A stretch of 64,000 nucleotides of DNA from Eutreptiella sp. 'Long Island Sound 2002' (Eukaryota; Protista; Euglenida), in assembly GCA_964036045.1 (NCBI GenBank), contig OZ038378.1:53692001-53756000 (forward strand), written 5' to 3'. The notes below the pieces were generated by a model. The model was not told the origin of the DNA, made no database searches, and saw only the letters and a program-made list of their open reading frames with translations. Positions 2,131-62,600 of the stretch are shown here, one piece after another (within the stretch, counting starts at the first letter, position 1; each line of letters opens with the position of its first letter). The position numbers and the translations under genes are program-made.

Positions 2131-2192
2131 TCATTTCCACTGTTTCGCTTTCTCACAGCTGTCAAAGCCTTTCGTCGCATTCTCTTTTGACC

Positions 2193-8550: not shown

Positions 8551-9941
8551 TTCAAGGACGGGTTCCTAGCGAGGGATGGCGACTTGCTGGCGAACATGAA
8601 GATCGAGGCGGACAACGTAGGTCACAGGTGGGTCGGCATCTTCAACGTGGCATGGCCAAGCCCAAACCGGCCACCCGATCCAGGTGACAGGGCTGCGGTG
8701 TACGCGGTGTTTCGGACGGACAAAGGGGGTCAAGAAGGTCTTCAGCTTCCTCACGTTGTACTTTGGGCGCAAGGACTTGTGCAACGCCTCTCTACGAAGT
8801 ACCCGGGTCTGTTCTTGGTGAAGGTTGGGTACCTTCGGGCAACGTCGGATCAGCCACAACTATGGCATCGGGATCTTCCGCTGGAGTTGCCAATCGTTGG
8901 GGTGGAGCACGCCTTCTCCTGCTTCATGCCTGTGAATCTGGACTGCCCCATGGACGGCCGGGAGAACATGTTCGTGTACGGTTCAGGCTCTGGTGATCCC
9001 TATCCGTGCCAGGAGGTCTTGATGAGTATGGTGGCGGGCGACCTGTGGATACTGAACAGTTACGTCATTCACCGTGGTGGGGCTGTCCCGAGACATGTGC
9101 CGCCTGGATCAACCCGTATCATTGCCTTTGCCGCCATTGCCACACACCGCGTCGACTACGAGACCCCCATGCCGATCATCCCGCCTCCCTGGGCTGAAGC
9201 CCCCGCGCAAAAAACCGTCGCCACCGTCCCCGAAGGTCGTGCACTGTACAGCAGTGCAGTGCAACCGCGTGGTGAAGGCCGACCCGCCAGGGAAGTGTTT
9301 CGCCTTTGACGAACGTCCCCTTTGTGCTCCAAATGTCGGGCAACTCTTTGAAGACTGTCAGCGGGATTCTGGCTATCCTGCAGTGGAGGCCGCCCCTGGA
9401 GCTGCTGTGGAGGCCGTGGCGATGTCAGCCGAGTGAGCACAGGAAGTCGATGAGGACCTGGGGACGCAGAAGATCGTGGAGGAGGATCTGTGCGGGTTTG
9501 CGGCTTTGGTGATGATGCCCTTGGACCAGACGGTGCTGTACACCACCCATCGCCCAGGGCCACTGGCGGCAGAGATTTCTGCTCGGCTGGTGATCCACGC
9601 GTCCGCCCAACCCTCCGCCCCCGAAGATTGTCCCCTTGGCCCCTTTGCCCGGGGAGGAGGAGTTGGAGGCCCCGACCACAAGCAAGTTCCACATCATCGC
9701 CACGCAGCCGGGCAGCCTAATGGTGGTGCGAGAAGGCCAGGTGGGTGGGATGGCAGTGGTGGAGGACACCTCGGACCCCCCGGTCGCCCAAGTACTTGGA
9801 TGGGATGTTGCCGGCACCCACCCGCGCGTCGTTGCCACGTCTCTCCTGGTCCAATCGGGGCTTCTGGTGGCCAACCCTGAGCGCCTGAAGGAGTACTGGT
9901 GCCTTGCCAACAGATATGAGCCTACAGTGTGGCGGGGCTAA
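8551..9941 (+). pseudogene. E1 cargo gene 1, C-terminal part: PhyH-like 2OG-Fe(II) dioxygenase, Cys-rich segment and C-terminal domain
   Basis: QPQLWHRD...AGDLWILNSYVIHRGG...RIIAF. The C-terminal TSKFHIIATQPGS...LLVQSGLLVANP matches TSHFPLVKTNPGT...ILVESGLVLENP at 57326-57729. Confidence 0.75.
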
Positions 9942-11580: not shown

Positions 11581-12161
11581 ACACCTGCATGTGCATGTGC
11601 ATGTACGTGGTGCGCTGCGATGGTGCTGACGGCAATGCGCCACCTTGAACGGAAACCTTTTTTGGTCTTAGCTCCTAGGTTGCGTGTTACCTCGCGTAGG
11701 ACATTAGTTGCGATGTGCACGAAGTGCCTAAGGTGGTGTCACGAGTGGGAGGCTTCACATAGCCTACCCCTTGGGGACGTCACCAAGGTTTACGCCCTAT
11801 ATGCATGCATTCATTCAAAGTTTTGATATATTATATCATTAGCCTGTTTGATTCTGGACTGAGGGGGGTGGTACCATGGGGTGCAACACATGCATACACT
11901 ATACGACATTGCAAAGTGTTGACCATGACGTTGCACTCTGCCTGTGCCTGGTCTTTGGGCTCAATGAGAGGGAAAGGCAAAACAAGGGGGGGGGGCAGTG
12001 CTAGAAGGGGGTGCTGGAAGTGGTGCTCGAAGGGGTTCCAGCGCTGGAAGGGTTCGCTGGAAGGGTCCGCTAGAAGGGGGTTCCTGTGCAGAAAGGGGTT
12101 CTAGCAAGGGGTTCCAGCAGGGGTTCTAGCGGTCACACCTTGCCCGTTTGTCACAGAAACC

Positions 12162-13702
12162 ATGGAGAGGGCGGTTGCCGCACTTGTGGGTAGCATTCCA
12201 CGGCTCAAGCCATACACGCCCATCAAGGGGAAGGCCCGAGCAGAGCGGCGGCACCACATACAGACCATCATGCGGGAACTTTTAGTGGATCCGGAGGAAG
12301 TTGTCGTTGAGGGTGGTGGGGGCTTGTACATCCGTTTTGCCGGGCACGACGGCGATGAGTACCCTCGTGTAGTGCGGCCTATCGGACAATGGGCCACCGG
12401 TAGGAGATTGAAGTTATCAATACGGCAGAGGTTGGCCCTCTCGCCCGAATGCACGCGCCGCGATCTTGCCGAAACGTCACAAGGTTAACACCGTACTCCA
12501 CCACAACCTACACTATCAATGGCCCCATTATGATCGAGCGGCGGTGCGCAGCGACAGCAACACTAGAAGGCCTCGTTTTTACGCAATTGAAAATAGCTGA
12601 GACCCTAGGGGAGTTTGAAGTGGAAACCGAGAAGATTTGGATTTGAATATGCCCTGATGCAACGTCATTGTGGCACACATCGGTCACTAAGATCGATGTT
12701 TTTGTTACCTGCTAGGCCCCGGGGTTTTTTGCTGCACGGGACATCCACAAATTGGTGATGTGGGTGTGCACGGATGGGCCCGATGACGCCGCACGGCTGC
12801 AGGCTTTAGACGAGGATGCGGGCCTAAATGCCCAAAGCATCCACCTGCAGGAAAGTTGTACATTCCGTGTCAAAAACGAAACCAAAAAGTTTCAATGTAA
12901 TATGACCGGGGAGGGGAAACTAATGATGGTGACGAACGGGGGTGGGGGGGAGAAGTGTTGGTGGGACTGCCTCGATGCCACCGGCCGATAGAGGGCACGG
13001 TAAACAAAATTCAATGGGGGTCATTTCTTCGAAGTGTGTGTATTCGCATTGGAGACTATGCACACGCAGGTTGTAGGGTAACCAATGCTTTCAAGAAGCG
13101 CCGAACAGAAACTTTTACCACGTTAACAGTGGGTGTTCTTGGAGTGCGGTGAATTGCTAGTGAGTTTGCCAATACATGGTCTACCCTTTTAGCAGATGTA
13201 AAGCATGTGGCTCCTGCTGACAGGCTTTTTCAAAGACCACTAAGGCAGGGCAATTTGATATGAGCACCTCCGTGTTGTCCTTGAGAGACCCTAAGTACCA
13301 TGTTCGAATTGTACATGGCCTCAGGAACCATTTTCCTGACACCATGTTTGGTGGTGTCCTCTTGTGGATACTTATTGAAGTGTTGCTCGCAATATACTCA
13401 GCCTATATGCCTTGTGTAGGCAAAAGACACCATTGACCAATGGTCAGGTGCAAGAGGCCAAGACTCACTGCCGTAAAATCGGTGAGGCATGGCTTCGATT
13501 GGGTTGGAATTCAACCCCATGGGTCCACTGGACAGTGGCCCATTGTGGAGCGGTGCTCCAAAAGTATCGTAACCTTTATGCGTTCAGCAGTATACCTGCG
13601 GAACACAGGCATAAGCCTTTCAAACTCGCCTTTCAAACAGCATCCGTGGGTGGTGCCTTCGCCGCCCACGCGTTTCATGACGTGGTCTCACCCATGTATT
13701 GA
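12162..13702 (+). pseudogene. E1 transposase, RAG1/Transib-like DDE
   Basis: ICPDATSLW, CTDGPDD, MTGEGKLMMVTNG...KCWWDC, IGDYAHAGCRV, STPWVHWTVAH...FSSIPAEHRHKPFK. Colinear with 59394-60950 and 47731-49300. Confidence 0.75.
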
Positions 13703-14235
13703 ACGTGGAGACCCTTGACGTGGGGTTACGACACTGAGCGGCCCTGCAAAGGCTTGTTCTTGGCGAGGCCACAAAGGACCGAAGAAAAAGGCACTGCATG
13801 TACGCTTGAGAAACCAAGTTTGAACCCGGTGGATGCATTTAGTGCCCTTCTTGCAAAAATCCTTTGCGCACAAACCCCCCCGCAGAAAGGGTGCAGAAAG
13901 GGGGTTCCAGCGCACAAAGGGTGTACAGAAGGGGTGCCGAACGGGGGTTCTAGCGCACAAAGGGGGGTGCACGAAGGGCGCACAAAGGGTGCAGAAAGGG
14001 TGAAGAAAGGGTGCTAGAACCCCACTTCCAGCAAAAGGGGGGGGTGTAGAAAATCCGGCAAAACGGACCGTTTCGGACAAAAGTGAAAATCAGCCACCAA
14101 AAGGGGCATAAACATGTGGTGATTGGCCCCAAACCACTTTCTAACCACACAAGGTGGTGCGGCTGGGGTAATCATGCAAAAAGGGCGCTAGAAGGGGGGG
14201 GTCTTTGCGCACACCTTCTAGCGACGCACCCCACT

Positions 14236-15943: not shown

Positions 15944-17293
15944 CTACTGATGGTACTTCGCAAAGCAATCAATGTGCAACGAAACGCCACAAGCTTGGCA
16001 TTTTTACATCGACGTTCGGCCCGACAGCACACACATGTGCCTCGCTTGGCACGGATAGGGAGGTGCTTTGCCTGCACCTCATTTTTTCGGGCAGGAAAGA
16101 TGTACCGCATGAGACGCCACTGCCAATTGTGCATGCTTTCCACTGGGGCACAAAGTTTCAACGCTTTGCACGAGGTAAAAGCGTTGGTGGATGCCGTGCG
16201 CAGCAACATGCCGTTCAAAGCCTTCCACTAGTTTGGAAACCGCTGCTCCACCCGATGCTGCAAGCACAGCTGGTTCCACACATCGACCCCGGGTGCAAAT
16301 GTGCGGTAGTTGGCCACAATGCTGGGTAGGCGATACCTACGCTTCCGCCATACATGGGGGCCATGGTGGCACTTGGTGACCAAGGGCACAGCCCGGGCGG
16401 CCTCTTGCCCACCTTTGGGCTTTTGAATATGCTTAGCGCATACCCATCCTCCTTGTGAACCACTGTGTTCACCTTCTGAGGCTGTAGCCCCTTGCTTCCT
16501 TGCTCAACGAGATCTGCCGATTAGGGGATAAGCATCAAGAAGGGTCGAGACTGTGTCGCTAGAGACCTAGCTGTACCATCGGAACCAAAGTAGGTGTCCG
16601 CCACCAACACCCGGTCGCTGGGTGCCACATCATGCCACAGTTGCACAATGTCCGTGGGGGTGTAATGGCTAGCATAGGTGGTTGGAGGTGGGGGGGTTTC
16701 ACGAGGCATTGCACCACGATACAAATAAAATGCCAAACGTACCGGTCCTGAGCATCACACACGAGATACAATTTTACCCCCGTGGTATGCGGTTTCCGAG
16801 GGATAAATTGTCTAAATAGGAATAGGCCCTTGTGTGGGACGATAGATTCATCGCGACATATAATGTCACCTAATACCCACCCATTGTGCCATTGTTGGGT
16901 GCACATCTCAATCAGACCATCCACACCCGGATCCGCGAAGCGTTGCAACTTGTAGAACGCCCCAGGGTCCGGGAAGGGGTACTCCATGTAGGGGTTGTAG
17001 TACATGCTGTCCCTATCCCATAGGTCATCAATGCGGCGGGGTTGTAGCATTCCGAGACCTAATCGGAAAAGGATGTAGCGGGGTAGCAAGGGGACCAAGT
17101 GGGCATGCCCCTTGGCGCGGAGGCAAATGTCCCTGCACGCCATGATGGGCCGCATCATGTACTCATACACCGTGACCGGTGTGTCCGCGGCGCGTGTACC
17201 CTCCAATAGGCTGGTGCCTCGTGCAACACTTTGGGTGAAGTCATACAAAGCCTCATTAGGATCCAATGGACGCGGTTGCCAATCCGATTGCAT
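15944..17293 (-). pseudogene. piggyBac-type transposase (DDE_Tnp_1_7) with C-terminal Cys-rich domain
   Basis: CRDESIVPHKG...RQFIPRKPHTTGVKLY, VLVADTYFGS, PSIVANYRTFAPGVDVWNQ and CVCC...KCQACGVSLHIDCFAKYH*. Frameshifts and stops. Confidence 0.9.
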
Positions 17294-17699
17294 AGTGATT
17301 TGATTGCAGTAGAGGGAAAAGGAAATTTGCTGCACAAACTGCACAAACTTCAGGAACAGGCCACACCACCCCGTTTGTTGCACTTTACTCGAAGACCGCT
17401 ACAGACCGGTCCGCACCGGTCCTTGGACAAACTGCACCAACTCATCTAAACTGTCCGGTCCGAGCAGTTTATGCAGTTTATGCTGGTTGTTCAATTTTTC
17501 TATTCTTTACCTGTTTTCTCTATATTGTCTACCGATTAGCTACTTTTTATTTCTATTTCTATTTCTATTTCTTTAGCAGGGGGGGGGGGGGGGGCATAGA
17601 GGGGGGGGTGGCCTTTTGCTGATAGACTGAGAAGGTCACATGCAATGGGCATTGTAGCAATTCGTTGAACAAACAACATGGGTCGGCAATGTTTGAAGA

Positions 17700-21129: not shown

Positions 21130-27183
<6,054 letters not shown>

Positions 27184-31540: not shown

Positions 31541-31766
31541 GGCATGGCGGGAACGGGGAGAGATGACATTAGCACATACACGCTTTGTTTGGAAAAACAA
31601 TGTGACCCACCGCTTTCTGCGCTGTCTGCGTTCTCTGTGCTTTGTTTTGTGCGCCTCTCTGGGTGCGTTGTACGCGTTTTCGGCGTTATGTACGCTCCAG
31701 TTAGTGTGCCTCCGAACGTGGCTCTAGAAGCGGTACAACCTGTGATCCGCGTATTTCCCTTGTACT

Positions 31767-33371
31767 GTGTCTCTCATCATTGTTACCAACATCATTTTAG
31801 TGCACTTTGAAATGGCCCTTAGTCTCTCAGCTGGTCGCCTCCACAAGGAGGATTGTGCTACTTCAATTGAGTACGGTTCACGACCTGGGGAGTCGAAACT
31901 TGATGAGCTGGACACGGATGGTACATGGGACTACATGATGAAGCCCATTGTGGATGCCCAAGAGGCCGTCCTCCCAGCTCGGGAAAGGGACGACCTCATC
32001 CCCCTGGTACCACGGTACCACACTTTCTGTCTATTGCTGGGCATGGTGCGGCCCATGCAGGTAGATGGTGTATGGGACCGTGATGGGTTGGTGTACAATG
32101 CCTATCTAGCACGCTTGCTATTCCGGGGGCAATACTATGATCTGCACAAACATTGTCGCCCGGATGTGGTGGACCTTATTGAGGCGGTTAGTGCCCATTG
32201 GGCTGCAGCATGGACCATGGGTGGCGCGGCCACGGGGGATGAAATCCTAGTGCCGCATATGGGCCTTAGGGCAAGCCCCCTAAAGATGTACATTGTGCGG
32301 AAACCGCACAACACCGGCATCAAGCTCTATCGGTTGGCTAATGCCGGTACGGGGTACATCGTGGACGTGTACTTTTACACTGGCCGCCGCGGTGTCCTCC
32401 GCCGACACGGTTGTTGTGCCGGTCACCTCAACGCCCGACAGCTTATGGCCATGTGGTCAACTCAGCTGTCAGCTTACACGGTCCTTGTAGGGGACTCATT
32501 CTTTGGGTCACGCGCCACCGCACAACGGCTTGCGCGTGTAGGATGGCCCTTCATCACCATGGTGCGAAAGCTCGGACACGGCCGGTGTCTAGCAAGGCGG
32601 AGACACCATCCACGCCGGGCCGATTGGTGTGGCCACGGTTGACGGCCACAACTACGCCCTGCACGTGTACAAGCAGCTCAAAACCGGAGGCGAGCCCCCC
32701 AATTGGTGCCCATCCTGTCCAACGTGTGGTACGCTGCACGTGGGCCCTCTCACCACACGGGCCACAAGATCCACCCCGTCGTTGCTGCGTACCACCAAGT
32801 GGCATGAGGGGTGGACTATGACAACCGGATGGCGTTGCACATGCGCCTCTTGGGAACCCAGATGTCCTGTTCGCAAGCCGTGCGAGGCTTCTTGCTGCGA
32901 TACGCCGCGGCCAACGTGTTTGCAACATGGTGCGCCCTAGAAAGGTGCCGTGGCGCGGATAGCATGTGGGATTGGCAGTGGGCCCTTCTTCGTCGCCGGT
33001 ACTGTACCGATGTGCAGCCGCGATGCACCATCCAGGTCCCCGTTGGCGGCGCCCAACTCCGTGCTTGTGCACATTGTGGCAAAGGCTGCACACAATACGT
33101 GTGTAGCGGATGCCCGGACACCCCGTTGCATGTGCAATGCTTGGTACCCGTGCACGGGATCACTACGACGGGCACGGACGCCGAGGAAAGCGAGCCGCCA
33201 ATTAGCCCCGAGACTCATGACGGGGACGCCGGGGAGCACGACCCGGAAGTGGATGGCGAGGCCGAGGAGGAGCCGGATAGCGATGAGGAGGAAGAAGAGG
33301 AGGAAGCGGAGGACTCTAGGGGGAGCGTAGAGGACGACACGTTGGAGACCTTCTGCTTGAGCGTGTTGTAG
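31767..33371 (+). pseudogene. piggyBac-type transposase with Cys-rich domain and acidic tail
   Basis: TGDEILVPHMG...VRKPHNTGIKLY, VLVGDSFFGS, GVDYDNRM and CAHCGKGCTQYVCSGCPDTPLHVQC. Homologous to 15944-17293. Confidence 0.9.
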
Positions 33372-36379: not shown

Positions 36380-38393
36380 GCTAGACTATTGCTCGAGCCC
36401 GTGTCCGTAAGGCCTGGCACAATCCTATTGCTTCAGATGGAGGATATTTTTGGTCTGCTGGTGCCCCCGCAACAGGCAGGATTTATTAAGGGCAAGGACA
36501 TGTATGAAAAATCTGCCCCACTGTAGGAGCTACTAGGATTTCATGTCGGAGGGTTTTCTACTATCAGTTGACTTTGAGAATGCGTATAACATCATAACCT
36601 TTGAGCATGCCCAAGTCATGTCTCAGTTAATGGGTTTGCCAGCAGGGATGATTGCATGGATGATGCGGCTCCTTCAGTCTCCAGTGGTTCTGTATACAGG
36701 GGGTAATCATTGCTGATGTGTTGTGGTCGCCTCGTGAGGGAATCAGGCAGTGGGACCCCTTCTCACCAGCACTGTTTGTACTATTGGCTTCTGTCATTAT
36801 GCGGGTGTTGCAATCAGTGCACCCCGACCTGCACGTAGGCATGTATGATTTGGTTGTGTACATGTCCTGCTCGTCTACAGATGCTGTAGTCTTGCTAGAA
36901 GACATAGTCCATGCCTTATACACCTTTGGACTACACACAGGATTGCGCATGAATAGCTCAAAGTGCAAAGTTTTGTTCAACGGACTGGACTTGCAACAAT
37001 TTGTATAGTCGCTGGGACTAAAGTTTGCGTTGAAAATCAAGTATCTGGGTGTCATGATTGGTCACGTCACAGAAAAAGATATGTGCGCATCGGTAGTGTC
37101 AAAGTCGTTCATTAGGTATAAATAGTGCGGGATTTGGACTTGACAAGATCCGAGGAAGTGCAACTGTTAAAGGTGTGGATCTATCCTTTGTGGATATTAC
37201 CGGCCAGGGTTTGCTATCAAAGCAAGCAGATCATTCAACAGATGTGTACCACGGTACAGACAGCTTTGGGAATACATTTAATTTGTGGGGATTGACTTTG
37301 AAGGAGTTTGGTCATTCGTTCCGGCATGGGGGTTTTGATCTGGTTTTGCCACGGAATTTTTTGCTTTTCCATCACTCTTCCTTGTTCCTACACTTCTTGT
37401 GTAAGCCTCACCACTTTGCACCGCAGTGTACGTAGATTTTTGAGGGATGAGTAGACTCAGTCGGGCTTTCTTTAGAGCCGGCACACTTTTCCGCCCTGCA
37501 GATGGGTTTGGTGCCCTGGGAGTCCCTGAATATGACAGGTTTGTCATGTAAAGCGTATTCATAGCTGAGGAAGTCATTGCCACGAGCCATCAATGAACCT
37601 GTGACAATGGGGAACATCCCACTTCAGCATAGTGCCCTGTTAACGAACATGGGTACTCATATTATTCTGCATGTCTAGCTCGGGAGGGTTCGGTCACAGT
37701 TGCAAGCTTGTTGCACAACCCATGGAAATTGGGACCGTTTCCACTTCCAACCACGCCAGCCATTATTCTTACAAGGAAACAAAGTCTGAAGCGCAAGCCA
37801 ATCTGTCACCAATTTAATGGGCTTCAGTCCTTTTCCAGGGCTCATTGAAGACCTTTTTTCCCACACTCGTTTCAGCTGAGGCTCCTTCAGGTCGCCAGCT
37901 CCAGGAGGAATGGCGTTTATTTAATAAGTTGATTTTCAATTACCATGCACATAGCAGCAAAGAATTCATTAGGGAGAGTCTCTGCTCCAAACTTAAGGTG
38001 GGTGACAGGTCAACGTCGTGGCTTCCAGGACAGCGGCATCGTGCCTTGTGTGGGGACTTTGACATGGTATCCCATGCCTTATACAACTGCAAGTTTTTTC
38101 TACTTGCTTGTGACACCATCTCAAAGTGCTTGGGAACGTCAGTACACCAAATCTCACAGGACCACACGCGAAAACACTATCTACACCCCAGGGACCCCTC
38201 TTGTGGGCAGCTCGACAGGCGAGCTGGCATGTACGCAATGCGGTGCGCCTGTCACCCCGCTCAATCAATGCGACGCATTTTGTCAAGACTTGGTGGGGTA
38301 TCTTACAGACTTGGTTAGCGTTGCCTGGACTCAGTGTTAATAGGGAGGAGGTGGGGAAAGTCATGACAGTGTTACAGAGTTTCCTCAGGACAG
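36380..38393 (+). pseudogene. 5'-truncated non-LTR retrotransposon: reverse transcriptase and zf-RVT remnant (tail continues at about 49815-49900)
   Basis: QQAGFIKGKDMYEN, LSVDFENAY, GIRQWDPFSPALF, NSSKCKV, KYLGVMIG, then KLKVGDR...LCGDFDMVSHALYNC and LWAARQASWHVRN. Confidence 0.9.
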
Positions 38394-43269: not shown

Positions 43270-44348
43270 GTGAAGTCTGCTTATGGTAGAAATACATCAG
43301 GTGTCTGGTTCCAGACAGATGTGACAACCTTCGTTGTTGCATGGGACAACTTTCCTAGCCAGGCACGCATGTGCCGTGTTCGCTCTGCAGTAGACTGTCG
43401 GAAAACTCTGGTTTCCGATTGCCGCCTGGGTGCAAGTGATGCTCTCGATGGATTGGAGAGGCGTGGACTGCCAGTAAAGTTGCACTTTTGGAATTGCCTC
43501 GCAGGCCTCGTCCCACCTGACCTTGAGGAGGTTACGCAGTACCTGGGCTCCAGCAATGTGTCACTGCCAATGATTACAAAGAAGGCAAAGCAACTGAAGG
43601 CTCCACGTTTGTGGGAACATCATTTGTGCCACCTAGACAACCACTTGGTTGACCCCAGTCGCAAAACGCTTGCAGAACGGGCCCGTTGTGCACAGTGTCT
43701 CTTGTCGAAGAGCCATGTCACCTTCAAGACGTACCCTTGGAAGTGGTCTGAGCAGAACCGCTGGCCCCCGTGGAAGTATGTCGTAACTGCTGCAATCTGG
43801 AGTGACCCCACGTATGCTCCCCTCCGTGATGCCCTTCGGCGTCCCCTTGTGAACCCCGATATCAAGATTGCTGCTGATGTCAACTTCATCACCGTGAACG
43901 TTGGCTCTGAGGCCCCAGAGGCGGGGGTGACTGACAGCAAGTCCGTGGATGGGGTCATGCATATCACAGGGATGGCACCTGGTACTCCGCTGCACTCTAC
44001 GGTGGCCAACATGCCGTATTGCTGATCGTCGTTGAAGTTCCTAAGGGACATATGGAAGGCATCCATTCTGTTTTCAGTCGCAATTCGGTGTCTGGGACGC
44101 TTGTTCCATTTGTTGGCGAGGCTTGTGACGTCTTGGAAGTGCTAGATGGTCTCCGAATGTTGCACGACAACGAGGGTTTGACAACAATTCACGTGGCTTG
44201 CTTTATTCTGGGATCTCTCACACAGCTGTACTCGATGGGATTCACTGAGGTGTGGGTAGTCTCCAAAATTCTGCTACCCAAGAAGGTATTACTGTCAGCT
44301 CCTGCTACCTGCTGCCTGCTACCAAAGTCACGTTGTCTGCACCGTTAA
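43270..44348 (+). pseudogene. Element C accessory gene, unknown; homolog at 61400-62600
   Basis: WKWSEQNRWPPWKYVVTAAIWSDPTYAPLRDALRRP aligns with WVWSESDQWPSWDAISKASMWSADEWESFRIILAKP. Confidence 0.6.
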
Positions 44349-45985: not shown

Positions 45986-47218
45986 AAAGGCAGCCTGGTT
46001 TTCCCAATGTCTGCTCGTCCCTTTGCTTGGGATTGGATGGCGGCCGTCACAGGTCCCGCCGGTGCACGTGGTTGCTCCCTTCCGGAGGGGCAAACGTTCC
46101 ACGACACCCCGATGCCAACCAACTCTGCCTCGATTTGGCCGCCGGGCACGACCGTTGGCCGGGTGCGCATCACCAAGTCCATCCTCCGCGACAGGGACCC
46201 CTATGCCCTCTCGGACCTCATTGCGGAGACGGTGCGCTGCAACCCCGATATCACTGCCTTCCACGTGCGGCCCAGCTGAGCGGACTACCCCTGCTTGCTG
46301 GAGTCCCTGTCCACCTGCTTGCCCAGCGACCACGCCCGGATCCACAACCACTACCCTGTGGATGGGGAGCCGCCCACCACCCTCCGCTTCGCTTCCACGA
46401 AGCCCAAGCCCGCCACTTTCGCTAAGGAGGGGTAGTACAAGGAGGCAGCCAAGAGAAAGTTGTTCCTCTTCCATCCGCGGCCTTCCGGTGAGGAGACCCT
46501 CACCGTCTACTCCCTCTGCAAATGCACAGCGTGCGAGTGGGACGGCGACGGCCGCGGGCTCACCTTGCCGAGTGCCTATGCGGCCAGCGGGCTGCTTGCC
46601 CTCCCCGTCACCTCCACCCCGCTCTTTGTGGCGTACGACGACCCCCTGTTGGAGCTGCCGAGTGACTCCCCCACTGCCGTGAAAAGGGACCTTAGCTAGC
46701 TTGCCAGCCTGCAGCACTTGTTCATCCGGGGCTTTTTTGCGGTGTATGAGGTGGAGGAGGCGCACAAGGAGGCATTTGCGATCGCCGAGGAGCCCTGGGC
46801 CTGCATCTTCAACCACGACCACCCAGTTGCCGGCCGAGCCGAGGACCCGCCGGACCGCAAGATGGTGTGGGGGAAGCCGGAGGACATGTCCAAGCATCCG
46901 AATGGGGAGGAACACATCCACATTCTAGACCTGCCGCGCTTGACGGCCATGGTCACGCAGGTGAAGGCCAAGCTGGAGGCGATCTTGGGCAAGACGCTGC
47001 ACGTCATGACGCAAGGGTACATCGAGTCCATCACCCGCGCTCGACAACTGCCGCACCGCGATTTTCCACCATTGTCACTTCATGTGGATGGCATCGCCCT
47101 CTCCGTGTCTTGGGCACTGTTGACGGATATCCTCGACGATGATGTTTGCGCACAGGATAGTAGTCACGTCGTGCGCAGGGCGCGTAAGGTGGTGCCACGA
47201 GCGGGGTGCTTGACATAG
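45977..47218 (+). pseudogene. E3 cargo gene 1: N-terminal domain plus truncated PhyH-like dioxygenase
   Basis: PPGTTVG, DLIAETVRCNP and YSLCKC...GLTLP match the E1/E2 domain; WACIFN...RARQLPHRD gives the HxD motif. Confidence 0.7.
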
Positions 47219-47730: not shown

Positions 47731-49300
47731 ATGTATTGCAGAAAGGCCGTTGCCAATTTTGTTGCCAGCGTTGTTCGTGCGACCCGGTATTGGGATCTGG
47801 AGGTTGATGCACGGCGACAGAGACGGAAATACATTGGTGACGCTGTGGGCGCTGTGCTAGGAGATGACGACATCGTTGTGCGCACAACCGGTAACAGTAT
47901 AGTGAAGGAGTCCAGCAGCCACGAGGTGCGCGCTGACAACGAACAGCATGTCTTCGAGGAAGGGATCCAAGTGTTGCGAACGGCACACCACATGAGCCTT
48001 TCCACGCGCAACATTTTACAATTGGAGGGCAATTGTACACGAAGGGAGTTAATGGAGGGACGCCGCAAACTGTTGCCATATGTCGCAACGGCCCTGGAGG
48101 TCTCCTTGGGGGTGGTATCGCACCGATCTGCTGCTGTATGTCCACTCCTTGAAGTAGTGCAAAGCCAGCTGACATTGAGTGGGGTGTGCGGTACGTTTAA
48201 CATCTATCAGCAAGACCGCCTCTTGATTATCATTTGCGCAGGTGCCACACCACTGCGGCAGACCTCGGCCACCAAGTGCGACATCCATGTGACCGTTTGG
48301 TCAGAGGGTGTAGCGGCTGCAGGCGACATGCAACGCTGGGCGACGTGGTGGGCGCTTGATGGTCGGGATGACACGCTTTGTCTCCGGGCCATTGACACCA
48401 AGGCAAACCTTAATCAGGATGTTTTGGATGTTCTGTCCGCTGTGGATGTTTGGCACTTGGGGAATTGCCTCCCCAGTGTATGTGCCTTGACAGGTGAGTG
48501 CAAAGCCATGCTTTCGGCCAATTATCACAAGGGGACATGTTGGGTGGGCTGCCATTGCATTGATTCTTTGGCACGTGCCAATTTTGTACCGGCCCAATGC
48601 AGGTGGGGCTCATTTTTGAGGGCAATTGGACCATGCAACCGCGTTGGTGGCGTGGAGCATGGCTCGTGTCGTATTGCGAACGCAATAGTGAAGCGAGTCA
48701 ATGAAACATTGAACGATTTGATTGAAAACGGTGCACCCGACGTTGCCCGTGCTGCAAGGGACACAGGCAAAGCTTTGGGTTCGGAGCCTCACAAGCTTTT
48801 GGATGAAGTGAAAAACGTTCCTCATGCCGAGCGGTTCTCTCCCCGGCCAACCAAGGCCGGAAAATTTGATATAACAGGTGGCAAAATATTTTTTGAAGAC
48901 AGTGCATCACATGGCGGAGTTGTGGCCGTATTGCGGGACAACCCACCCGACGTCGCCTTTGGTGGCGTTAATTTTTTCCTATTGCTGAAGCATTTGTTGT
49001 TATCAATGCATCGAATGCACGCGCTTTGGCGCAACACGCATTGGCTGACACAAGCCAAACTCAACGAATTGGAGTTTGCGAGTGACCTTTTGGGGGAGTG
49101 TTGGGGTAAGTCGCAATGGGGTGTGACCGCTTGGGTACATTGGGCATGTGTGCAAAACGCATATTTTGTGCGTCGCTTTGGGAGTTGGTACATTTGTCAC
49201 AGTATTCGGACGGAATACAGAAACCAACCGTTCAAGCGGCATATTAAAACTCGATGCGCGATTGGTGCCTTCTGCGACTCGCAACACACGCCTCGGAATG
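47731..49300 (+). pseudogene. E3 transposase, RAG1/Transib-like DDE; open frame but the catalytic Asp positions look substituted
   Basis: CAGATPL, ALDGRDD, LTGECKAM...CWVGC, RWGSFLR, VGGVEHGSCRI and VTAWVHW...TEYRNQPFK. Confidence 0.72.
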
Positions 49301-51584
49301 AGGCACGTGGTGCACACCGACACACTGAGTGTCGGTGTGCAATTGTGCGAGGCGTGACAAGGCCGCGGTGTAGCCGTTGTCAAGCGACGCAACTAGTGGG
49401 TGGACCAGTGCCAACATCATTGTGGTGGCACAAAGCGATTCAGGCCCTAGCGAACGGATTTGTGTGCTATTGCCTCGGGACAGGAAGGGTCATAGGAAGG
49501 GTCTAGGAAGGGGGGTTCCTGCGCAGGAAGGGGTCTAGGAAGGGGGGGGTTCCTGCCCAGGAACCCCCCTAGGAACCCCCCTTCGTGGCCACCAAAAGGG
49601 GGGTTCCTAGGGGGTTCCTACCCAAAACGGGGTTTACAAGAACACCCCAAAATTGGGCATCACCAACCCGGGACCCAACGTCTCCCAAAATAGGCGCATT
49701 GTAGGTGCGGTGTTTGTGTTCAAGGTCTTCGGGTGCCGTCGTACCGTGTAGGAGTAGAAAAACCGTGGGAAGGGAGGCGGGGTTCCTAGGCCATCCTTCC
49801 TTGGCTGCACCTCAAGGACAGTGGTTATAGGGGGAGCCTTAAGCGCAGTGCGAGCGCAGTGCAACTATTGGGGCGTTTGGCCGTACTAGAGACCCATGCT
49901 TTGAGATACTAGGGGCCCCTAGGGGCAGCATGGTGACCCCTAGTAGAGGTTTTGACTTTCGATTTTGTCACCCTTTGTTGGGGGATCCCCGATAATGTAG
50001 GGGTGACGTATCATTTCGGCCGTCTTTTGGGCCCCATCCTTCCGGTGCTATTGAGGAAACCGGGACAATCTGTGAATCCACGCTTTGATACTAGTAGGAT
50101 TCACCCGATTGGACTGTGTACAACCGAAAGTTTCAACGGCAAGCTCAAAACAAGTGACGTTATGTGGCACTACACGCAATGCCGTTTGCCACTCTCTTCA
50201 TTGTGTTGATGCTTTAGATTATATCTGTGCAGAGTCGCGAAGAGCCATTTCCACTTAGGGGGACAAGCACGCATCAGACGACCAAAGATTCCATTGGGAA
50301 GCGGAAGTATTGAAGTAAGTCCGATTCTCTGATACAAGGACGCGATTAAGGCTCCTTTTGTGTTCTTGAGGGTGGCGACCAATGCGCCGTTCATGGCTTT
50401 TACAGTTGTGCATGATGTGTATTATGTAAAGGGAAGGTAAATTGCAACTTTGTTGAGGTCGGGCAGTTTGGGTGACCTAGTTCTAACGGCGTTTCCAAGG
50501 GGTGTGCTTTGGGGCTCTTCGGGGGAAACATAATCTAAAAGTAGCATGTAGTGTGCGCGCAGCGCAAAGATTCCCCCATACACAGCAGTGTCCTGAACCC
50601 GGCCATCTTCACCGAACCCCAAGCAACAGAAAACACATCGCCGAGAGCCCCGCAAGCTTGAACATGTAGAACAAGTGAAGACGTTATTGCACTCTCACGG
50701 AAGAAAGAAGGGCCAATCTGGACAGATGGATCGTAGGGCAGACCGCAGGTTGGGAGGTCCTGGGTGGGGGGGTATGGAGTGTATTTTCCATTGAGACCTG
50801 GAGTGAATGTTTCAGAGGTTGTGCCGGTGGGGGAGCCGCAAACCATTGGAAGGGCCAAGCTTAGGGCAGTGTGAAGGGCGCTCAATGAAGTGACCCTGTT
50901 GCAGCCGGCGGCTATTTTGTGCGATTCGAAGTTCATAGTAGATGTATGCGAGACATCACAATTAAGCAGCATACACACCAGCATCCAACTAGCATGTTAT
51001 AGTAATAATAATAATAATAGTGATGGGATAGTAATAGTAATAATAGTAAAGTAATAGGATGAGTGCGGGGATTGGCCTCCGGGTTCTCCCGACGCATCGG
51101 TACCACTTTCGGGTCACGGGTTCTCGTCTAACCATGAGGCAGGGTATCATCAAATCTCAGTTTGGACAGTCGCACTCACGCGGGGGGGATGTCTCCTCGC
51201 TTCTGTACGCGACTCCCCCCCCCCCCCCCAGTAGAAGTGGGTCAAAGGCCCCTAGGGGGGGGGGGGGGGCTAGCCGCCGAGGAGGGCCTCCCTAGGGGAC
51301 TAGCTAGTCGCTGCTAGTTGCTAGGGGGGGGGGGGGTTGGGGGGGAGGGTTTAGCAGAGGTCTAGTCCAGTCTGGCAGAGACGCGGTGGCCTAAGGGGTT
51401 ACTCTACAACAACGGAGGCCTCCACTCTACCTCCTCACCATTGCAATGGTGGTTGCAGGCGCCCACACCCCCTGCCTGGGGAGGGCCGTATATATATGCT
51501 GGTCTCTCCGACACGGCCCATCACACCGGAGAGCAGCTGGGTGCCTTGCAGGTTGCCCAAGCCTACGAGGCACCCGTTTGCTTT

Positions 51585-54329: not shown

Positions 54330-55012
54330 ATTATGTCCTCATGTCATTGGTGGTTGCGCGCGGTCAATCTGTACGTCTGGTGCGTGCTGCGACTCCCTGA
54401 CCATTGTGTCCAACAACAGTGCATTGACCGTCCACAATGGACTTCGCATGTGTCCTTGCCGTGCCAACCGATGTACTGCATCTTTTTGTGTGAGCCCTAA
54501 ATGTGAAGGCACATGATATATGGACACGTGTGTACCATACACCTCAAGCAAAATGAGGATTTGCTTCCAGTGGTCTGTGTGTTTCACTAGTCCTGCGGTC
54601 GTTCGCCAATCATTCCTTTGCCACTTCTGTGCCTGACCGCGCACTTTTGTTTGTTCACTGATCCGTTGTACTCACTATTTCTTTTAGCTGGCAACTACCG
54701 GGTCCTTGGGGGCCAGCATGTGTCATTTGCCCTAGTGGATATATGGAACGAGGCTGCAAGGACTAGCAAAGGGGTACCGGAGTGGTTGAGCAATGTGCCA
54801 GTTGAGGTTATTAGTACGGAGTGTGGTGTGCAAAAACGACAGGGAATTTCTGCTGACCACAATGCCATAAAATAAGCATTAATTTCAGCTCTGCGCAAGT
54901 GTGGCAAGCTCGGGTTCTCCACCAGTGGTTTGTGTTTGTGAATCTGTGTTTGTGTCTCTGAATCCGAACAAAACACTGACACAAGATACCCTCTGGAAAG
55001 ACCGGAAACCAA
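54330..55012 (-). pseudogene. RNase H domain of a degenerate retroelement
   Basis: RRAEINAYFMAL and KWQRNDWRTTAGLVKHTDHWKQIL...HVPSHLGLTQKDAVHRLARQG follow the RNase HI motif order. Confidence 0.85.
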
Positions 55013-55587
55013 TTTAGAGCTTTGTGGAGTTGGCTAGCGTCCATGCAGGTCCAAGTGTTGATGCATTTGAAGCCAAAAGTCATGAAAGTATGATGATTTT
55101 TCCATGTTTACCAATCTTTACACGGTGCGGAGCACTTTTACACGAGTGGCTGAATTTTCCTCGTGTATGACAGATGTTACCCCCTTTGCCATTGGGTGCG
55201 CCGCTGGAAGCGCTCCTCTGGAACCCCCCCCCCCCCTTTATAGGACACTCGTTGGGTGGGGGCTACCATGCCACGTCCCCTCACTAAAGAAATATGTTGC
55301 TCCTAGTGTTTGTTAGTGAAGATAACAGGCTGTACCATTGCCCGCTTGCTTGATTTAAGATTGGTTCAAAAGTGCTGAAACCCCCGCTAGAACCCCTTCG
55401 AGCACTTCACTAGAAGGGGGTTTTAGCGCTAGAAGCGGGGGGTTCCAGCGCCGGAATCGGGTTCCAGCGGGGGTTCCAATGGGGGTTCAAGCGGTGGAAC
55501 GGGGGCTCCAGCAGGGTTCGAGTAGGGGCTCTAGCACTCGTTCTACCTCCATAGTCGCTGCAGTCCACTCACGCTTCTAACACTATT

Positions 55588-57729
55588 ATGATTTTCACCT
55601 TGTTCATGGACCGCTCGAATTTTCCGGTTCTTACATCTTGGCTTGACAATGCCCTTGTGGGGAATCGTGGATATTCAGCCCTTGTTGCTTGTGAACTTCA
55701 AAGTCTCACAGCTCGAACCACAGGTGCTGCAGTTATTTTCAAGCCCACCACCACCGTTGGTGCGCCCAAGTGAGGGGGTCGATCATGCATGATTGTACTC
55801 CTTTGTGTGGTGACCGATTACATCACCGACGTCATGGACAAAAACCCCCAAGTTCCCATTTTTCAATTCTCCCTTCATCCGAAATACGTGGAGGATTCGC
55901 ACCTCAACATCGCCTCTGGGCTCCCCACCAACTCCAACAGCACTGTGAAGCTGCATGTGGGGGATGACTAGTCCGGCGAAGTCCTCTTTGCTAAGAGGCG
56001 CCCCACAAGCAATAAGATGGGCAATGACAACTATTTACTCCCCCAACCCACAACTCACACACTCCACTTCCTCTCCCTCAAAGACGCACATAGACAGATG
56101 CTCATCTACTCGTTGGCCACATCCACCCCGTTACATTGGAGACCTAACGACCGCTATGGCCTTACCACCCCCACCATGATGTCCACTACCGACGAGCAGC
56201 CCTTCCTGCCTTTTCGTATGCGCCACCCCCTTCCATTGATTGGGAGCAACTAGGAGGTTGTCTCTAGGTCGCCCTTGGCACACCCACCAATGAGAACCCC
56301 AATGCCATCGCCAACTTTGGGCTTTGCCCCTACCGTGGTAACTTTGCCCACTTCCCGGTCCATAACGCCACCCAGGACGAGTGCATCACCGTTCCGGGTC
56401 ACAAGTGAGGGTCCGTCTTCAACGAAAATGTACCGGCTCCAGGTCGTCAAGAAGACAGCCCTGGTCGATGTGCGTGCTATAGCCGCTTGGGACTGCCACT
56501 ACTGGATGAAGAGGGGATGGAGCTGCCGGCCTTGGGCGCCCTCGCCAAGGAAGTACAGTGGGAATTGCAAAAAGTGAAGGAGTTTGAGGATATTGTGTTT
56601 TTTGGGGCTAGCTCTCTCCGCGCTACCAATGATAGGCGGCAACATTGGCACCGGGATCGCCCCTTGACACACAAGACTCAAGGGAGAGCCCTCTCCATAT
56701 TTGTGCCGTGCAACGTAGATACTCCCGGCGATGCCTCTTGTGGTCGATATGTGCCTTTCTCCCATAAGGGTGTGCCGAAGCCCTTGTACGAGTACCCGCT
56801 AAATATGGATGTTGGGGATATGGTCATCTTCACGTCAGAGTTGATTCTCTGTGGCGGGGCGTTCCGGTGGGGCTACTTGCAGGCACTCCTCGGATCATTG
56901 CCCTCATTGCGCTGGCTAATTACAATTTGCACTACAACAACACCGTGCCGATTTCCCACCCACCATGGGCGCATGCCGAAGCGCAGGTACAAGCATTGAC
57001 GGAGAAATGTTGGCGCAATGGATGCCGCAAGAAGGTCCCACGGCCCCCGCCCGTATGCTTCATGTGCCACAAGGTCCCACTGTGTCAAATCCATGGAACT
57101 GTAACTTGCTCCGCCTACGATGCAACACTTACCGCCCCCCCGAACTCTTTGCAGTGCTTGCTCAACATTCCTCCCTTGGTAGTCTATCGCAAGGTTCTTT
57201 AGCATCCGTGGGACCAAGTTGTGTCTGTAGGTTCGCCGACAGATGCCTCATGCCGCTGGGAAATAGTGGAGTTATGACACAACACCTGCCAGAAGCCCCC
57301 GGCGCCTATTAGCCCGCAACAGCCCGTGGATGTGCAAGCAGCACCATGCCTCCCGGAAAACGGCCCTTTCGGACCAGACACCCATGAGGAGGAGTGCCCA
57401 CCGCAACCCACTTCCCACTTCCCGCTGGTCAAAACAAACCCCGGCACCATCCTCATCATCTGCTCAGGACAGTTTGGGGGCACAACCAAACTCCGGACCC
57501 TGATGGGGATGAACTATGTGTCCTACCATGGGATCAAGTACCAAGGGAGACGCAAAATGTCGTGGACGCCATGATCCTTGTTGAATCTGGCCTCGTGCTG
57601 GAGAATCCAAAGGAGGCGGGCGAGTACCTGTGCGCATGCCAACATGTCGCCGTCGGTAGCTCTCGTGCGGTGACATCTCATTTTGATTTGTGGTTGCAGA
57701 TTGCATACGGACACCGTGCGCTGTGCTAG
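55588..57729 (+). pseudogene. E2 cargo gene 1: N-terminal domain, PhyH-like dioxygenase, Cys-rich segment and C-terminal domain
   Basis: RRQHWHRD...VGDMVIFTSELILCGG (distal His apparently lost); CWRNGC...CFMCHKVPLCQIH. Colinear with 1066-1784 plus 8551-9941. Confidence 0.75.
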
Positions 57730-57929
57730 AAGGGGTGCTGGAAGGGGCTTGCAGCGCTAGAAGGGTTGTTGGAATGGGGGGGGTTCTAGCGCTAGAAGGT
57801 GGGGGGTTCCAGCGTTGGAAGGGGGGTTCCAGGGCTCGAAGGGGGGTACCAGCTGGGCTTCCAACATGGGTTCCAGCGCTTGAAGGGTGTTCCAGCACTC
57901 ACTTTAAGGGGTTCAATCTACAATGTATG

Positions 57930-59056
57930 ATTGGATCGTTTATATACCACCTTCCTTTTGTGCTCAGGCCACACTGGACATCTAGCCGTTGCTGTCTCTG
58001 GTGGACGGGAGCAGCAGGAAGCCTAGGAGCTCCCAAAAGTTCAGATTTCGCTAAAGGGTCCGGTTCCGAAGCCCAAGGTTGTGACGCCCGACATTGGTGG
58101 GGAAGTGGACATCCAGGCGATAAAGTGGGCGGCAACCGTGGGTTTGAGTCCAGAGGACTAGACCCAGAGTTTGTTTCTGAAGGGGAAGACTAATTGGTAC
58201 CGATGCCTAAGTTTGCGTGTTAAGACTCAGCAACCACATTTGTTGGTACTCCGTTTGCCTTTGCGCATCACACACAATCACAAACCATCACGCCAAGAGT
58301 CATTTTTGTGTGCGACCGCCACAACATAGGCACACAGAGCATAAGCCTACCAGCTGTGGGATGCTTCAGCAGATGAGTGGGACGTTTGGCACTCTTTGAA
58401 GCGAGTTGCCAATGTATTTTCCTGCGGAAGTGCAGAGCCATGTGGACAAGTGGGTTGCTGAACGTGTTGCGGAGCCGTTAACAGGGTGGGGCCACAAGGC
58501 TGACCCCTGGGTTGTTGAGGAGGATTCTGCAGAGCTTGCCGAAGGTGTCCCTAAGGGTAAGACGGCCGCGAAGGTAGAGGGCAAGCCCACAAAACCCCCG
58601 ACCAACCCCGCCCCCAAGGCCAAGGCCGCCAAGCCCACACCCCCTGTCAGCGCCCCCCCTGCGGACCCGGCCCCCATTCCATTTCCCCTGGAGGAAACGC
58701 TGCGGGGCATTTCTGATGGCGTGGTGCACACAGTAGAGGGAAATGTGCAAACCACATTGAGACATATTTTTCCTTCTGCCATGCGTGAGGCTCTGAAGGC
58801 AGAATTGGCAGCCAAGGCGACCCGTGAGGTGCAGAAGCTTCGTGGGGAGCTCGCTGTAGCTATGAGTCAGGTAAAGGCCGCAGAGAAGCGAGCACAGGAG
58901 CTCCAAGAGACACAACATGACACCAAAAGGCAAAAGCTAGAGTCACAGGGCGAATTGAAGCACATTTCAAGAAATGTGGGAGGAAGAGAAGGACCGGTCC
59001 AACAAGTACCTCTCAATTTTGGAGAAGCAAAAGTGAAGAAGTTTCGCCTCGTGTGA
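57930..59056 (+). pseudogene. E2 cargo gene 2: Pro/Lys-rich linker plus coiled-coil
   Basis: ORF 58406-59056 (KAELAAKATREVQKLRGEL...). Upstream LFLKGKTNWYRCLSLRV resembles LMFQSGQTP*YKVLELNV of E1. Confidence 0.6.
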
Positions 59057-59393
59057 GTGAGGGTGCGGATATATATGGCGCCCTTTTGCACTGTGCCACA
59101 TGTGGGCCACTTGAGATGCGGACTGACAGATGCCAAAAAAGACACCCGAAAACTTTCTTGGTGCAAAGCGTGCCAGGGGACACGGACCCTAGTAACTGCT
59201 TTAAATGATGCATGAGCTGGTAGTATTTGACACCGTTGAAAAGGTCGTTGGAAGGGGGTTCCAGCGGTGGAAGGGGGGGGGGGTCCGGCGCTACAAGGTG
59301 GGGTTCAAGCACTTATTCTAGCGGGGGTTCGAGCGCCGGAAGGGGGTTCTAGCGGGGGTTCTAGCGCCCATTCCTAGTCTGTGGGTGTCTTAA

Positions 59394-60950
59394 ATGGACA
59401 AGGCTTTGGCAGCGTTTACGCAAGCAGTACCTCCCCTAGCGGCCTATTCGCAACTCAAGGACCGCGCACGACGTGAGAGGTGCGTGCTCATTGACACAGT
59501 CCTGGCAGCACTTTTCGTGGGGGGCACGCCGCTAGTTGAAGAAACCGCGGATGGGCTTTTCATCCGTAGCAGCATGTACTTTGAAGGGGAGGACAGCCAG
59601 GCCTATCGGGCTGTAGTTCGCGTCTCGAAATACGCCGTGGAGTCCAACGTCTCGATCCCGCAAATATTGAGGTTGTCACAGCAATGCACGCAACGCGACC
59701 TTCGCAACCCGCAGCCCCGCTTGACATTGTACACGGCGGAAACACCGACCGTCACCGGGGGGTCCATGCACCATAGGACTGCAAAAGTGACACAGCTGAA
59801 GGATGTTGTGGTAAACCAAGTTCAACTGGCAATGGCCGAGGGTAATTACAAACATAATGGGACTAAACGATGCATCTGGGCGGTTGTGGTGCCCGATGGA
59901 ACTCCTTTGTGGAAAACTAGTGTTTCAAAAGCGGATTTCTTTGTCCATTTTTGGGAGGAGGGCGTGAAAGGTGCTGGACACATTGTCCGTTGGGCAATGT
60001 GCCTGTGCATGGACGGGCCCGATGACGCTGGCTGTCTCCTAGCTCTGGACGACATAGGCCAACTCAATAAACCAGTACATTGCTGTGTTGCAGAGGGACA
60101 CCACATTTTTCATCGATGGCGATTCGTGGTGGTTCATGGTGTTCCTCTCTCGGGATAGCAAGTTGATGGCCGTAACAAACGGCCCGGGAAAATGTTGCCG
60201 TTGTGACGATGTTACTATTGTACGTCCATTGGACCATGTCTTCAAACCTGTTCGTTGGGGCTCCTTCTTGCGGAGTATCAAGGCGGACCGTCGGGTGGGA
60301 GACGTGGTCCGTGCTGCCTGCCGCGTGACATGCGCTTTCAAGAAGCGATTATCTGATGATATTGCCCGGTGGTTGGTTGGGGTGGTTGGCCAACGTGCCA
60401 TGGCCCGTGAATTTCATGAAATTTCGGGTGAGATATTGCATTCCAGCCGCGGAGCGAAAGGACCTTTTGCCTGAAAAGGCAAAGGGGTGAACATATGACA
60501 TTAGCACGGTTGGACTTTTTTGGGACCAACCCGCAATTCAACAACGGCTCACGGTATTCCTCCAAACGCACTTTCGAGGTATTATTTGCAACGGTGTATG
60601 TATTTATGTTCTTGTTGCCGCTTTTTTTGCGCGATTTTGGTGCACTTCACACACAATGGCGCAAAAAAGAATATCTTCTTGACGTCGAGGTGGCCTGTGC
60701 CAAAGCTTTGTGTGTAAGCATTGGCACATGTTGGCAGATATAGGGGTGCAAGGCCACTCCATGTGTCCATGGGACTGCCGCCCACTCACACTACTTCCTT
60801 GCCAAATATCGCACTTTATATCTATTTTCCAATGTACCCGCCCAATACGGGCACCGCCGATTTAATACGCAGGTGAAAAACTCCATGCGTGGATGGTCGC
60901 ACCAAAAGCCACGCGTGTGGAAATGAGGCTTGCGCCATGTGCTTCACATG
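59394..60950 (+). pseudogene. E2 transposase, RAG1/Transib-like DDE
   Basis: VVVPDGTPLW, CMDGPDD, LSRDSKLMAVTNGPGKCCRC, RWGSFLR and ATPCVHGTAAH...FSNVPAQYGHRRF. One frameshift near 60090 and some stops. Confidence 0.75.
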
Positions 60951-61399
60951 AAGATTATGCAAATTGGCTTGCGGCACTACATTGCATGCAAGGGCTGTGC
61001 ACTATTGAAAAGACAAGGGCGTTGAACTACAAGGACATTGTCCTGCATCGATGAGCTGAATTGTAATCGGTTTTTGCCACCAGTGCGCGTTTTGGTGACG
61101 TTGGGATGTGCGCCGGAAGGGGGGTTTTCGGCACGTGAACCCCCGTTGGAACCCCCTTCCGGCGCTAGAAGGGTTCGTTGAAAGGGGGTTCCATCGGGGG
61201 TTCCACCGCTGGAAAGGGGCAAAAAAAGTTGCCGGAAGCCCGCGAGAAGGGGGTTACAGCACTACTTCAAGCACTTTTTGCGTGCCCAAGTGCTCCGCAA
61301 GGACTGGGTGACCACGAACACCCAAGTGATGTGCATGGTAAAAATTTGTGCTAGAAGAGGGGGGTGCTGCAGAGCGCTTCCAGCGGCGCACCCCAAATG

Positions 61400-62600
61400 A
61401 GGGGTACCCTGGGTCTTGGTCCTGATTCCATTGGTGAGATTTTGGCCGACATGGATTGCACAGGGTGTACTGCTGGTGGATTGTCTGCCCTACTATGCAC
61501 AATCAAAAGGGATCACACATGGGAGTTGGTGTTTTGCATCCTGAGAACCAAATCGTGCATGAATCTAGACGTATGTTATAGTACTGCAACACTTTTTCGT
61601 TTTTCGACTGCTGGTTGTTTTGCTGAACTGTGATGCCTTAGGTAATCATGAGGCGCCTGAGAAGGTAAAACACCTACTCAAAGATAAGTCTCGTGCCAAC
61701 AAGGTGAATTTGGGTAAGTGGGTGTGGTCTGAGTCCGATCAATGGCCAAGCTGGGATGCAATTTCCAAAGCTTCGATGTGGTCTGCTGATGAGTGGGAAT
61801 CTTTTCGTATTATCTTGGCAAAGCCTGGTATCCGACCTGCATTGATCTCGTCTGCTGAGGACAAGGAGAGGACTCTTACATTGGGAGACGGGGACAAGCA
61901 GCGAGTTTCAATTGTAATTCTGTGGCACACAAGTTGGGCGCGTTGAACTACAACATGTTATGTGAGGCACACCAATGCCGCCTTTTCGTTTTTTCTTTTC
62001 AATCATATAGGTTGCTTCCCACCATTTACTTCAGATTCTTGTTGATGTGGCGGAGGATGTGAGTGACCTTGATGTGCATCCCCTACTGGTTACAACATTG
62101 GAGAAGAACAGAGCCCTAATGTTTTCCAGCGAAACAGGCGCCCGTTAAGGTTGCTATGCATCCATTCAGGGACCTTGAGGCCACCAGTGGTTTGCAGTTT
62201 CTTACTTCACATTTGTATGACTTTGAAGGCACGCACCCTGTGCACCGGTTCACTGAGCACACCTTTGTGATTGCTGTTCCCGACTGCCTGCCCGGTAAGG
62301 TGCCCAACTATGTCTCGTATACAAGGAAAGCACTACAGTGCAACATGTGCCTGTCACTTGTCGGGTGGGTGCTGCGTGAGCTTAACATTGTTCCCTGTGG
62401 TGAGGAGCACGAGGTCCGGTTGTTGTTTGTGACTGCACTGCCTCATCCCCCTGCAGTGTTGGCCACGTGCCTGGCATGTGCAGTGAACGTTGCCGTTGCA
62501 TTCAACGGGAGGTTTGCTGGTCCGGAAGAGTACTCCTTGTTTGTCAACAATGTCTGCAAGAATTTGATGCAACCTATCTGATTGATTGGGACTGCGTCTG
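61400..62600 (+). pseudogene. Accessory gene of the outermost Academ-like element (homolog of 43270-44348)
   Basis: WVWSESDQWPSW...ASMWS motif shared with 43270-44025. Confidence 0.55.

Follow-up and report, generated by a model that had tools for sequence, protein, structure and literature searches.

We analyzed a 64-kb stretch of Eutreptiella sp. contig OZ038378.1 (hereafter the window), which consists of repeat-rich, eukaryotic-looking DNA. Translated self-comparison revealed four related elements, E1, E2, E3, and B, each a plus-strand row of genes with short repeat arrays between them. They are 6- to 7-kb DNA transposons bounded by terminal inverted repeats (TIRs), with three genes, encoding an oxygenase (gene 1), a low-complexity, coiled-coil-like protein (gene 2; mostly lost in E3), and a CMCT-type transposase (gene 3); all element genes given below lie on the plus strand. 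The first-pass annotation had singled out gene 1 of E2 (55588–57729) as a conserved, transposon-borne PhyH-like 2-oxoglutarate (2OG)/Fe(II) dioxygenase, and this much of the description holds: the gene is carried by a transposon, its product is PhyH-like, and the catalytic residues are retained across deeply diverged families. The decayed element E2 spans approximately 55175–61406, with imperfect TIRs at 55167–55247 and 61347–61417, a left end that begins with TGT at 55175, and an eroded right end. Gene 1 is followed by a low-complexity, coiled-coil-like fragment of gene 2 (58400–59056) and by a broken CMCT-type transposase gene (59394 to approximately 60990) recognized by its motifs and its homology to gene 3 of E1 and E3.

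Gene 1 of E2 is a pseudogene in which four domains can be traced. The N-terminal domain (55606–56270) is 64–73% identical to E2-family proteins and is followed by a predicted PhyH-type double-stranded β-helix (DSBH) oxygenase domain (56271–57007) with the HxD motif at 56649–56657 and the 2OG-binding Arg at 56891–56893, by a Cys/His cluster located by E1-profile alignment and conserved Cys/His columns (57002–57130; a predicted zinc finger), and by a frameshifted C-terminal CP..H/CxC domain with CxC at its end (57223–57657). Against a profile of the E1 family, the N-terminal, oxygenase, tail plus Cys cluster, and C-terminal pieces scored 75.6, 59.3, 44.6, and 25.3 bits, respectively, and the homologous piece of E3 scored 19.8 bits; none of 300 shuffles reached any of these scores. 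The last E2 piece scored 0.2 bits, which was matched by 1 of 300 shuffles. The Pfam PhyH model (PF05721) gave 20.1 bits on E2 (E 8e-4; curated cut-off 22). The copy itself is dead. It contains five in-frame stops (55771, 55969, 56251, 56406, and 57200), the first of which sits where comparison with one relative suggests local out-of-frame reading, and frame changes near 56270, near 56861, and at 57.2–57.5 kb. The codon of the distal Fe-ligand His is CTC (Leu; 56847–56849), so the HxD..H triad is incomplete here, and the His is kept in two of the four other E2-family proteins that cover the site. Contigs from three runs aligned to E2 showed that variant copies are numerous, although their depth is no measure of copy number; most of these variants lack the stop at 56251 and have an extra base near 56270.

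A six-frame scan of the window located exactly four occurrences of the motif Q(L/H)(W/P)H(R/S)D, namely at 3176 (B), 8857 (E1), 47045 (E3), and 56640 (E2), as first noted. The four copies had been taken for homologs, with the weakest N-terminal match in B. E1, E2, and E3 are indeed homologous in both the N-terminal and the catalytic domain, whereas B proved to be only a remote relative: it was missed by the E1-family profile (the scores of its three pieces were equaled by 148, 42, and 69 of 300 shuffles) and aligned weakly with a profile of the diverse family, with three domains in order (hhalign E 0.049, 0.0018, and 0.0067, compared with 0.35–0.71 for five off-diagonal pairs). Of the N-terminal motifs said to be shared by all four copies, the G-x-R-G match of B is coincidental, because its GGRGW aligns approximately 45 residues downstream of the family motif. 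The Cys/His cluster and C-terminal domain ascribed to E1 and E2 are real in both copies but not exclusive to them, since the Cys cluster also occurs in the E3 family and the C-terminal domain in B. Among the four window copies, only that of E1 has all of H, D, H, and R; the E3 copy is truncated after HxD, and B has H, D, and H without the Arg.

The reported split of E1 gene 1 is due to the insertion of element B (1785–8550; ends 5'-TGTACCC..GGGTACA-3'). Its frameshifted 5' part (1066–1784) encodes the N-terminal domain, and its 3' part (8551–9940) the oxygenase with intact H, D, H, and R, the Cys finger, and a frameshifted C-terminal domain. The empty site without B reads in frame and matches the E1 protein. 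A TA target duplication, which would have been ESTA-like, was read first and was dropped because a 2-bp TT target site duplication (TSD) restores the E1 frame. E1 further carries a broken transposase gene (12105–13800) and ends on the right near 14266. Element B contains a broken gene 1 (2193–3960), which has HxD at 3185 and His at 3395 but neither the 2OG Arg nor the middle Cys finger, and a broken transposase gene (6315–7915) whose motifs are C(2)C, H(4)H, and E. In E3, gene 1 (45992–47218) retains the N-terminal domain and the first half of the oxygenase, and the remainder and most of gene 2 are missing; between 47150 and 47480, after HxD, the sequence switches to a likeness of the end of the E1 gene 2 region (11711–11995), and this junction to gene-2-like sequence indicates an internal deletion. 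Gene 3 of E3 is an open 591-aa transposase frame with substituted motif residues (47731–49506). In several database copies gene 1 is fused to the transposase, and in protein P0246 the N-terminal domain of another gene-1 family continues into the start of B gene 1. Together with the insertion of B in E1, the latter case, one of only two, hints that related elements may be a frequent landing site of B.

The database relatives of gene 1 comprise decayed and intact proteins. The E1 oxygenase frame retrieved 110 proteins among 609 candidates, plus 14 longer ones among 1895; all except the window's own were listed from ENA, and most of their contigs measure hundreds of kb to Mb. These copies have a mean identity of 83% to their consensus and keep the catalytic H, D, H, and R in 76 of 78, 69 of 79, 66 of 75, and 55 of 74 cases, which reflects the decay of dead copies whose ancestral gene was intact and comprised about 700 codons. 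The E3 and B families account for the 200 matches (120 listed) to a mixed query. In the B family, a cluster of 193 members is headed by an open 677-aa protein, and of the 14 other members listed, 6 are 666–703 aa long; the Fe ligands are kept in 26/28, 23/28, and 23/23 rows, and the 2OG Arg is replaced by Gln in 22 of 23. A profile search of 1.84 billion representatives returned 340 matches at E up to 0.001 (150 listed), including long proteins from other sources.

For a conservation alignment, 45 sequences were hand-picked for diversity. Its 11 long proteins are 18–42% identical and share the N-terminal domain, the oxygenase, and the Cys/His finger, and most of them also have the C-terminal CP..H/CxC domain. 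The catalytic columns are conserved (H364 in 36/38, D366 in 35/38, H429 in 36/39, and R441 in 30/37), and all four residues are kept in 26 of 34 scorable rows. Retention of HxD..H..R and two Cys/His clusters at such low identity indicates that the protein was under purifying selection. The comparison of E1 with E2 is consistent with this: among 270 codons, the first, second, and third positions agree in 142, 157, and 99, respectively, and different codons encode 62 of the 107 residues that the two share, similar to the transposase, both counts coming from a protein-guided and hence biased alignment. An origin of the closest homologs among host metabolic PhyH enzymes was not observed, as the best 150 of the 340 profile matches belong to the family described here. 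We looked up 20 clusters of distant relatives, of which 18 lie on contigs of 0.8–23 kb (ENA, JGI, Logan, and NCBI) and two on contigs of 0.7–0.8 Mb; their names go no further than 'hypothetical protein', and no named host enzyme was found among them. Three relatives (P0357, P0379, and P0403; 200–224 aa) on metagenomic contigs of up to 23 kb consist of the oxygenase only, possibly as a source or derivative of the transposon cargo; viral contigs yielded no such protein. One spurious locus was all that five scans of the viral contigs returned, and a metagenome scan gave one distant PhyH-like gene without the shared architecture. In a quick tree, B stood on a long branch and 19 of 33 inner branches were open, and no conclusion is taken from it.

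The catalytic domain is predicted by structure modeling to adopt a PhyH-type DSBH fold closest to AsqJ and FtmOx1. PhyH enzymes lead the fold search, with no TET/JBP chain among the matches listed. At E up to 0.5, Pfam PF05721 matched 11 of 60 family members, the best of them with 4.9e-7, whereas the Tet/JBP model matched none of the 60. In the ESM Atlas, the oxygenase found, at 0.94, a cluster in which 25% of the members have PhyH, and the N-terminal domain gave no usable match. An initial model, built from the decayed copy P0123 with a shallow alignment, was poor (pLDDT 41) and had no Foldseek match. For the N- and C-terminal domains, searches of Pfam, PHROGs, NCBIfam, and PDB profiles returned nothing; fold searches were filled by the oxygenase domain and hence provide no evidence of a new fold in the others. 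The N-terminal domain matched one ParB protein (phage P1) weakly (hhalign E 0.53), and the ParB G-x-RR patch is absent in all 24 N-terminal rows. Two motif-based readings, a SET-like E1 N-terminus and a GNAT motif A at GGRGWA of B, were dropped, as neither is conserved across the family; the B segment at 2410–2560 (strand, GGRGWA, helix, strand, helix) does resemble GNAT motif A.

By inspection, gene 3 of all four elements shows the motifs of CMCT transposases, namely the Cys pair, H(4)H, and a downstream E. H(4)H was seen in B, E1, and E2; the Cys pair takes the form C(2)C in B and E2 and C(3)C in E1 and E3. The ends of element B have the features given for PlavakaA in the cited part of a survey of fungal transposons, namely 5'-TGT..ACA-3' termini and a 2-bp TSD (PMC12730594). 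Plavaka membership of these elements is suggested but not established, since gene 3 has no PDB match and neither the 591-aa E3 frame nor an E2 piece matched Pfam at E up to 5.

Every gene of the elements is flanked by arrays of short palindromes. In E2, these arrays are located before gene 1 (55421–55500; TTCCAGCGCTGGAA type), between genes 1 and 2 (57749–57885), before the transposase gene (59259–59341), and at a subterminal position (61157–61214). Spacers and element ends contain 34 near-perfect 14-bp palindromes in 4410 bp, compared with 39 in 20790 bp of genes, and 200 shuffles gave a mean of 5.7 and a maximum of 13. The unit is family specific: E1 and E2 have the TTCCAGCGCTGGAA type, E3 has the TTCCTGCGCAGGAA type, and B the AATTCGTACGAATT type, and all types have a central CG. 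CpG is depleted across the window (0.72), yet the spacers are not spared (0.67).

The window was screened with Pfam in 264 stop-free frames of at least 90 aa (140 of 159 on the plus and 124 of 151 on the minus strand, with a simple-repeat block at 21–27 kb and some redundant frames omitted). Besides the weak PhyH match in gene 1 of E2, it contains two related, broken DDE_Tnp_1_7 (IS4/piggyBac-type) transposases of approximately 39% identity at 16562–17398 (minus strand; E 2e-10) and 31746–32642 (plus strand; E 4e-8), and weak reverse transcriptase and RNase H fragments at 36664–37008 (plus) and 54342–54671 (minus). The region 21300–26700 comprises (AT)n tracts, direct repeats spaced 1270 and approximately 1600 bp apart, and a 647-bp inverted repeat. 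Outside the four elements, 43633–43905 and 61638–61886 share weak translated similarity (26%, E 8e-6).

Our preferred interpretation, held tentatively and judged slightly short of probable, is that gene 1 encodes an oxygenase with an anti-silencing role, which is brought to the palindrome arrays of its own element and oxidizes a methylated base there; activity, targeting, and substrate are proposed by analogy. In intact relatives, the four-domain protein with its predicted PhyH-type Fe(II)/2OG oxygenase core would guard the element against silencing by the host. Recognition of the family-specific palindromes might fall to the N-terminal or zinc-binding domains or to the product of gene 2, the substrate could be a methylated base such as 5-methylcytosine in their central CG, and oxidation at the arrays may keep the three promoters open. 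Three observations weigh against this interpretation: the closest solved structures, of AsqJ and FtmOx1 type, act on small molecules or peptides; the protein domains are not basic; and the B family is successful without the 2OG Arg. A broader version, which we consider doubtful, would make these proteins a third lineage of DNA-base oxidizers, built on the PhyH scaffold independently of TET/JBP and AlkB and aimed by transposons, through the unclassified N-terminal domain, at their own CG-centered palindromes, where they would write or erase an epigenetic mark sequence-specifically. If true, such a sequence-targeted base oxidase would be a useful tool.

It is rather unlikely that the enzyme serves the transposon by acting on a protein (the transposase, a histone, or a silencing factor, which it would hydroxylate or demethylate) and uses its Cys/His domains to bind proteins, since Pfam, NCBIfam, and PHROGs scans recognized no chromatin-reader domain and the palindrome arrays would be left without a role. 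Still less probable is a captured metabolic or small-molecule hydroxylase (for instance one whose substrate is a metabolite or free nucleotide) that is of benefit to the host or hitchhikes, which would reduce the case to a curiosity of cargo capture. FtmOx1 and AsqJ, the closest solved relatives, are natural-product oxygenases, the oxygenase-only relatives stand alone, and decay within the E1 family is roughly even, the Arg included; however, dead copies are expected to decay evenly after insertion, the fact that four transposon families whose transposases have diverged all keep the four domains speaks against passive carriage, and the distant relatives include no named host enzyme. That the oxygenase fold is a non-catalytic or non-canonical scaffold, such as a modified-base binder or a transpososome cofactor, would suit the amplification of the young B family despite loss of the Arg and the middle Cys finger and the replacement of Arg or Asp in some long members (P0406, P0416, and P0337), but appears improbable given that H, D, H, and R are among the best-conserved columns across the diverse families and that B itself keeps all three Fe ligands.

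Among characterized proteins, AsqJ, FtmOx1, and PHYHD1 (PF05721), the last of which we take to be the human protein of structure 2OPW, show 12–19% identity and are stand-alone small-molecule enzymes, in contrast to the multi-domain, transposon-borne protein described here. A functional analogy only is provided by the VANC anti-silencing factors of VANDAL elements, in which a mobile element's own factor acts at its own repeats. The ParB-activated phage T-dioxygenases are likewise only functionally analogous, as oxygenases that need a partner domain (PMC13229309). According to the cited part of the fungal survey, TET/JBP genes are carried by DNA transposons from 11 lineages, among them Plavaka, EnSpm, and ESTA, which resemble the present elements in having an Fe(II)/2OG dioxygenase as cargo; the oxygenase here differs in matching PhyH and in having three extra domains, and the TET-positive Plavaka families of fungi are all PlavakaB, whereas element B has PlavakaA-type ends (PMC12730594).

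The closest parallel is PAG3 of red-algal Plavaka elements, for which the text of a recent preprint describes a putative ParB-like domain (E 0.29) joined to a 2OG oxygenase with 2OPW as best HHpred match, tandem inverted repeats adjoining the gene, and self-modification of element DNA as an untested hypothesis (bioRxiv 10.1101/2025.02.11.637652). Both systems combine an element of EnSpm/Plavaka type (suggested for those described here), an N-terminal domain fused to a 2OG oxygenase, and inverted-repeat arrays beside the gene, and because PAG3 was reported with a matching hypothesis, the concept of a self-modifying PhyH-like cargo is already in print. The PAG3 families are larger, at 17.4–19.1 kb versus 6–7 kb, and the partners of PAG3 are PAG1 and PAG2 (adenine methylase plus SET) instead of a coiled-coil gene (bioRxiv 10.1101/2025.02.11.637652). 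No Pfam match to a PAG2-like N6-adenine methylase or SET domain was found in the 264 window frames, although broken genes could escape. Compared by description only, PAG3 has no zinc finger mentioned in that text, and the protein here has two predicted zinc sites. In the literature searched, which did not extend to subscription journals, Repbase, or preprint supplements, a description of this exact family was not found. As presented in the two sources, the transposon oxygenases with a biochemically studied relative are those of the TET/JBP type (PMC12730594; bioRxiv 10.1101/2025.02.11.637652), and the PhyH-like cargo of red-algal Plavaka is a prediction only (bioRxiv 10.1101/2025.02.11.637652). 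With intact, diverse, and well-modeled proteins and a candidate target palindrome at hand, a PhyH-type modification of DNA or chromatin on behalf of a transposon becomes directly testable. Beyond the published concept, the present family offers a compact element of three genes, a PhyH-type protein of four domains in which two zinc sites are predicted, a young subfamily without the Arg, palindromes that accompany every gene and differ by family, and a broad range of intact relatives.
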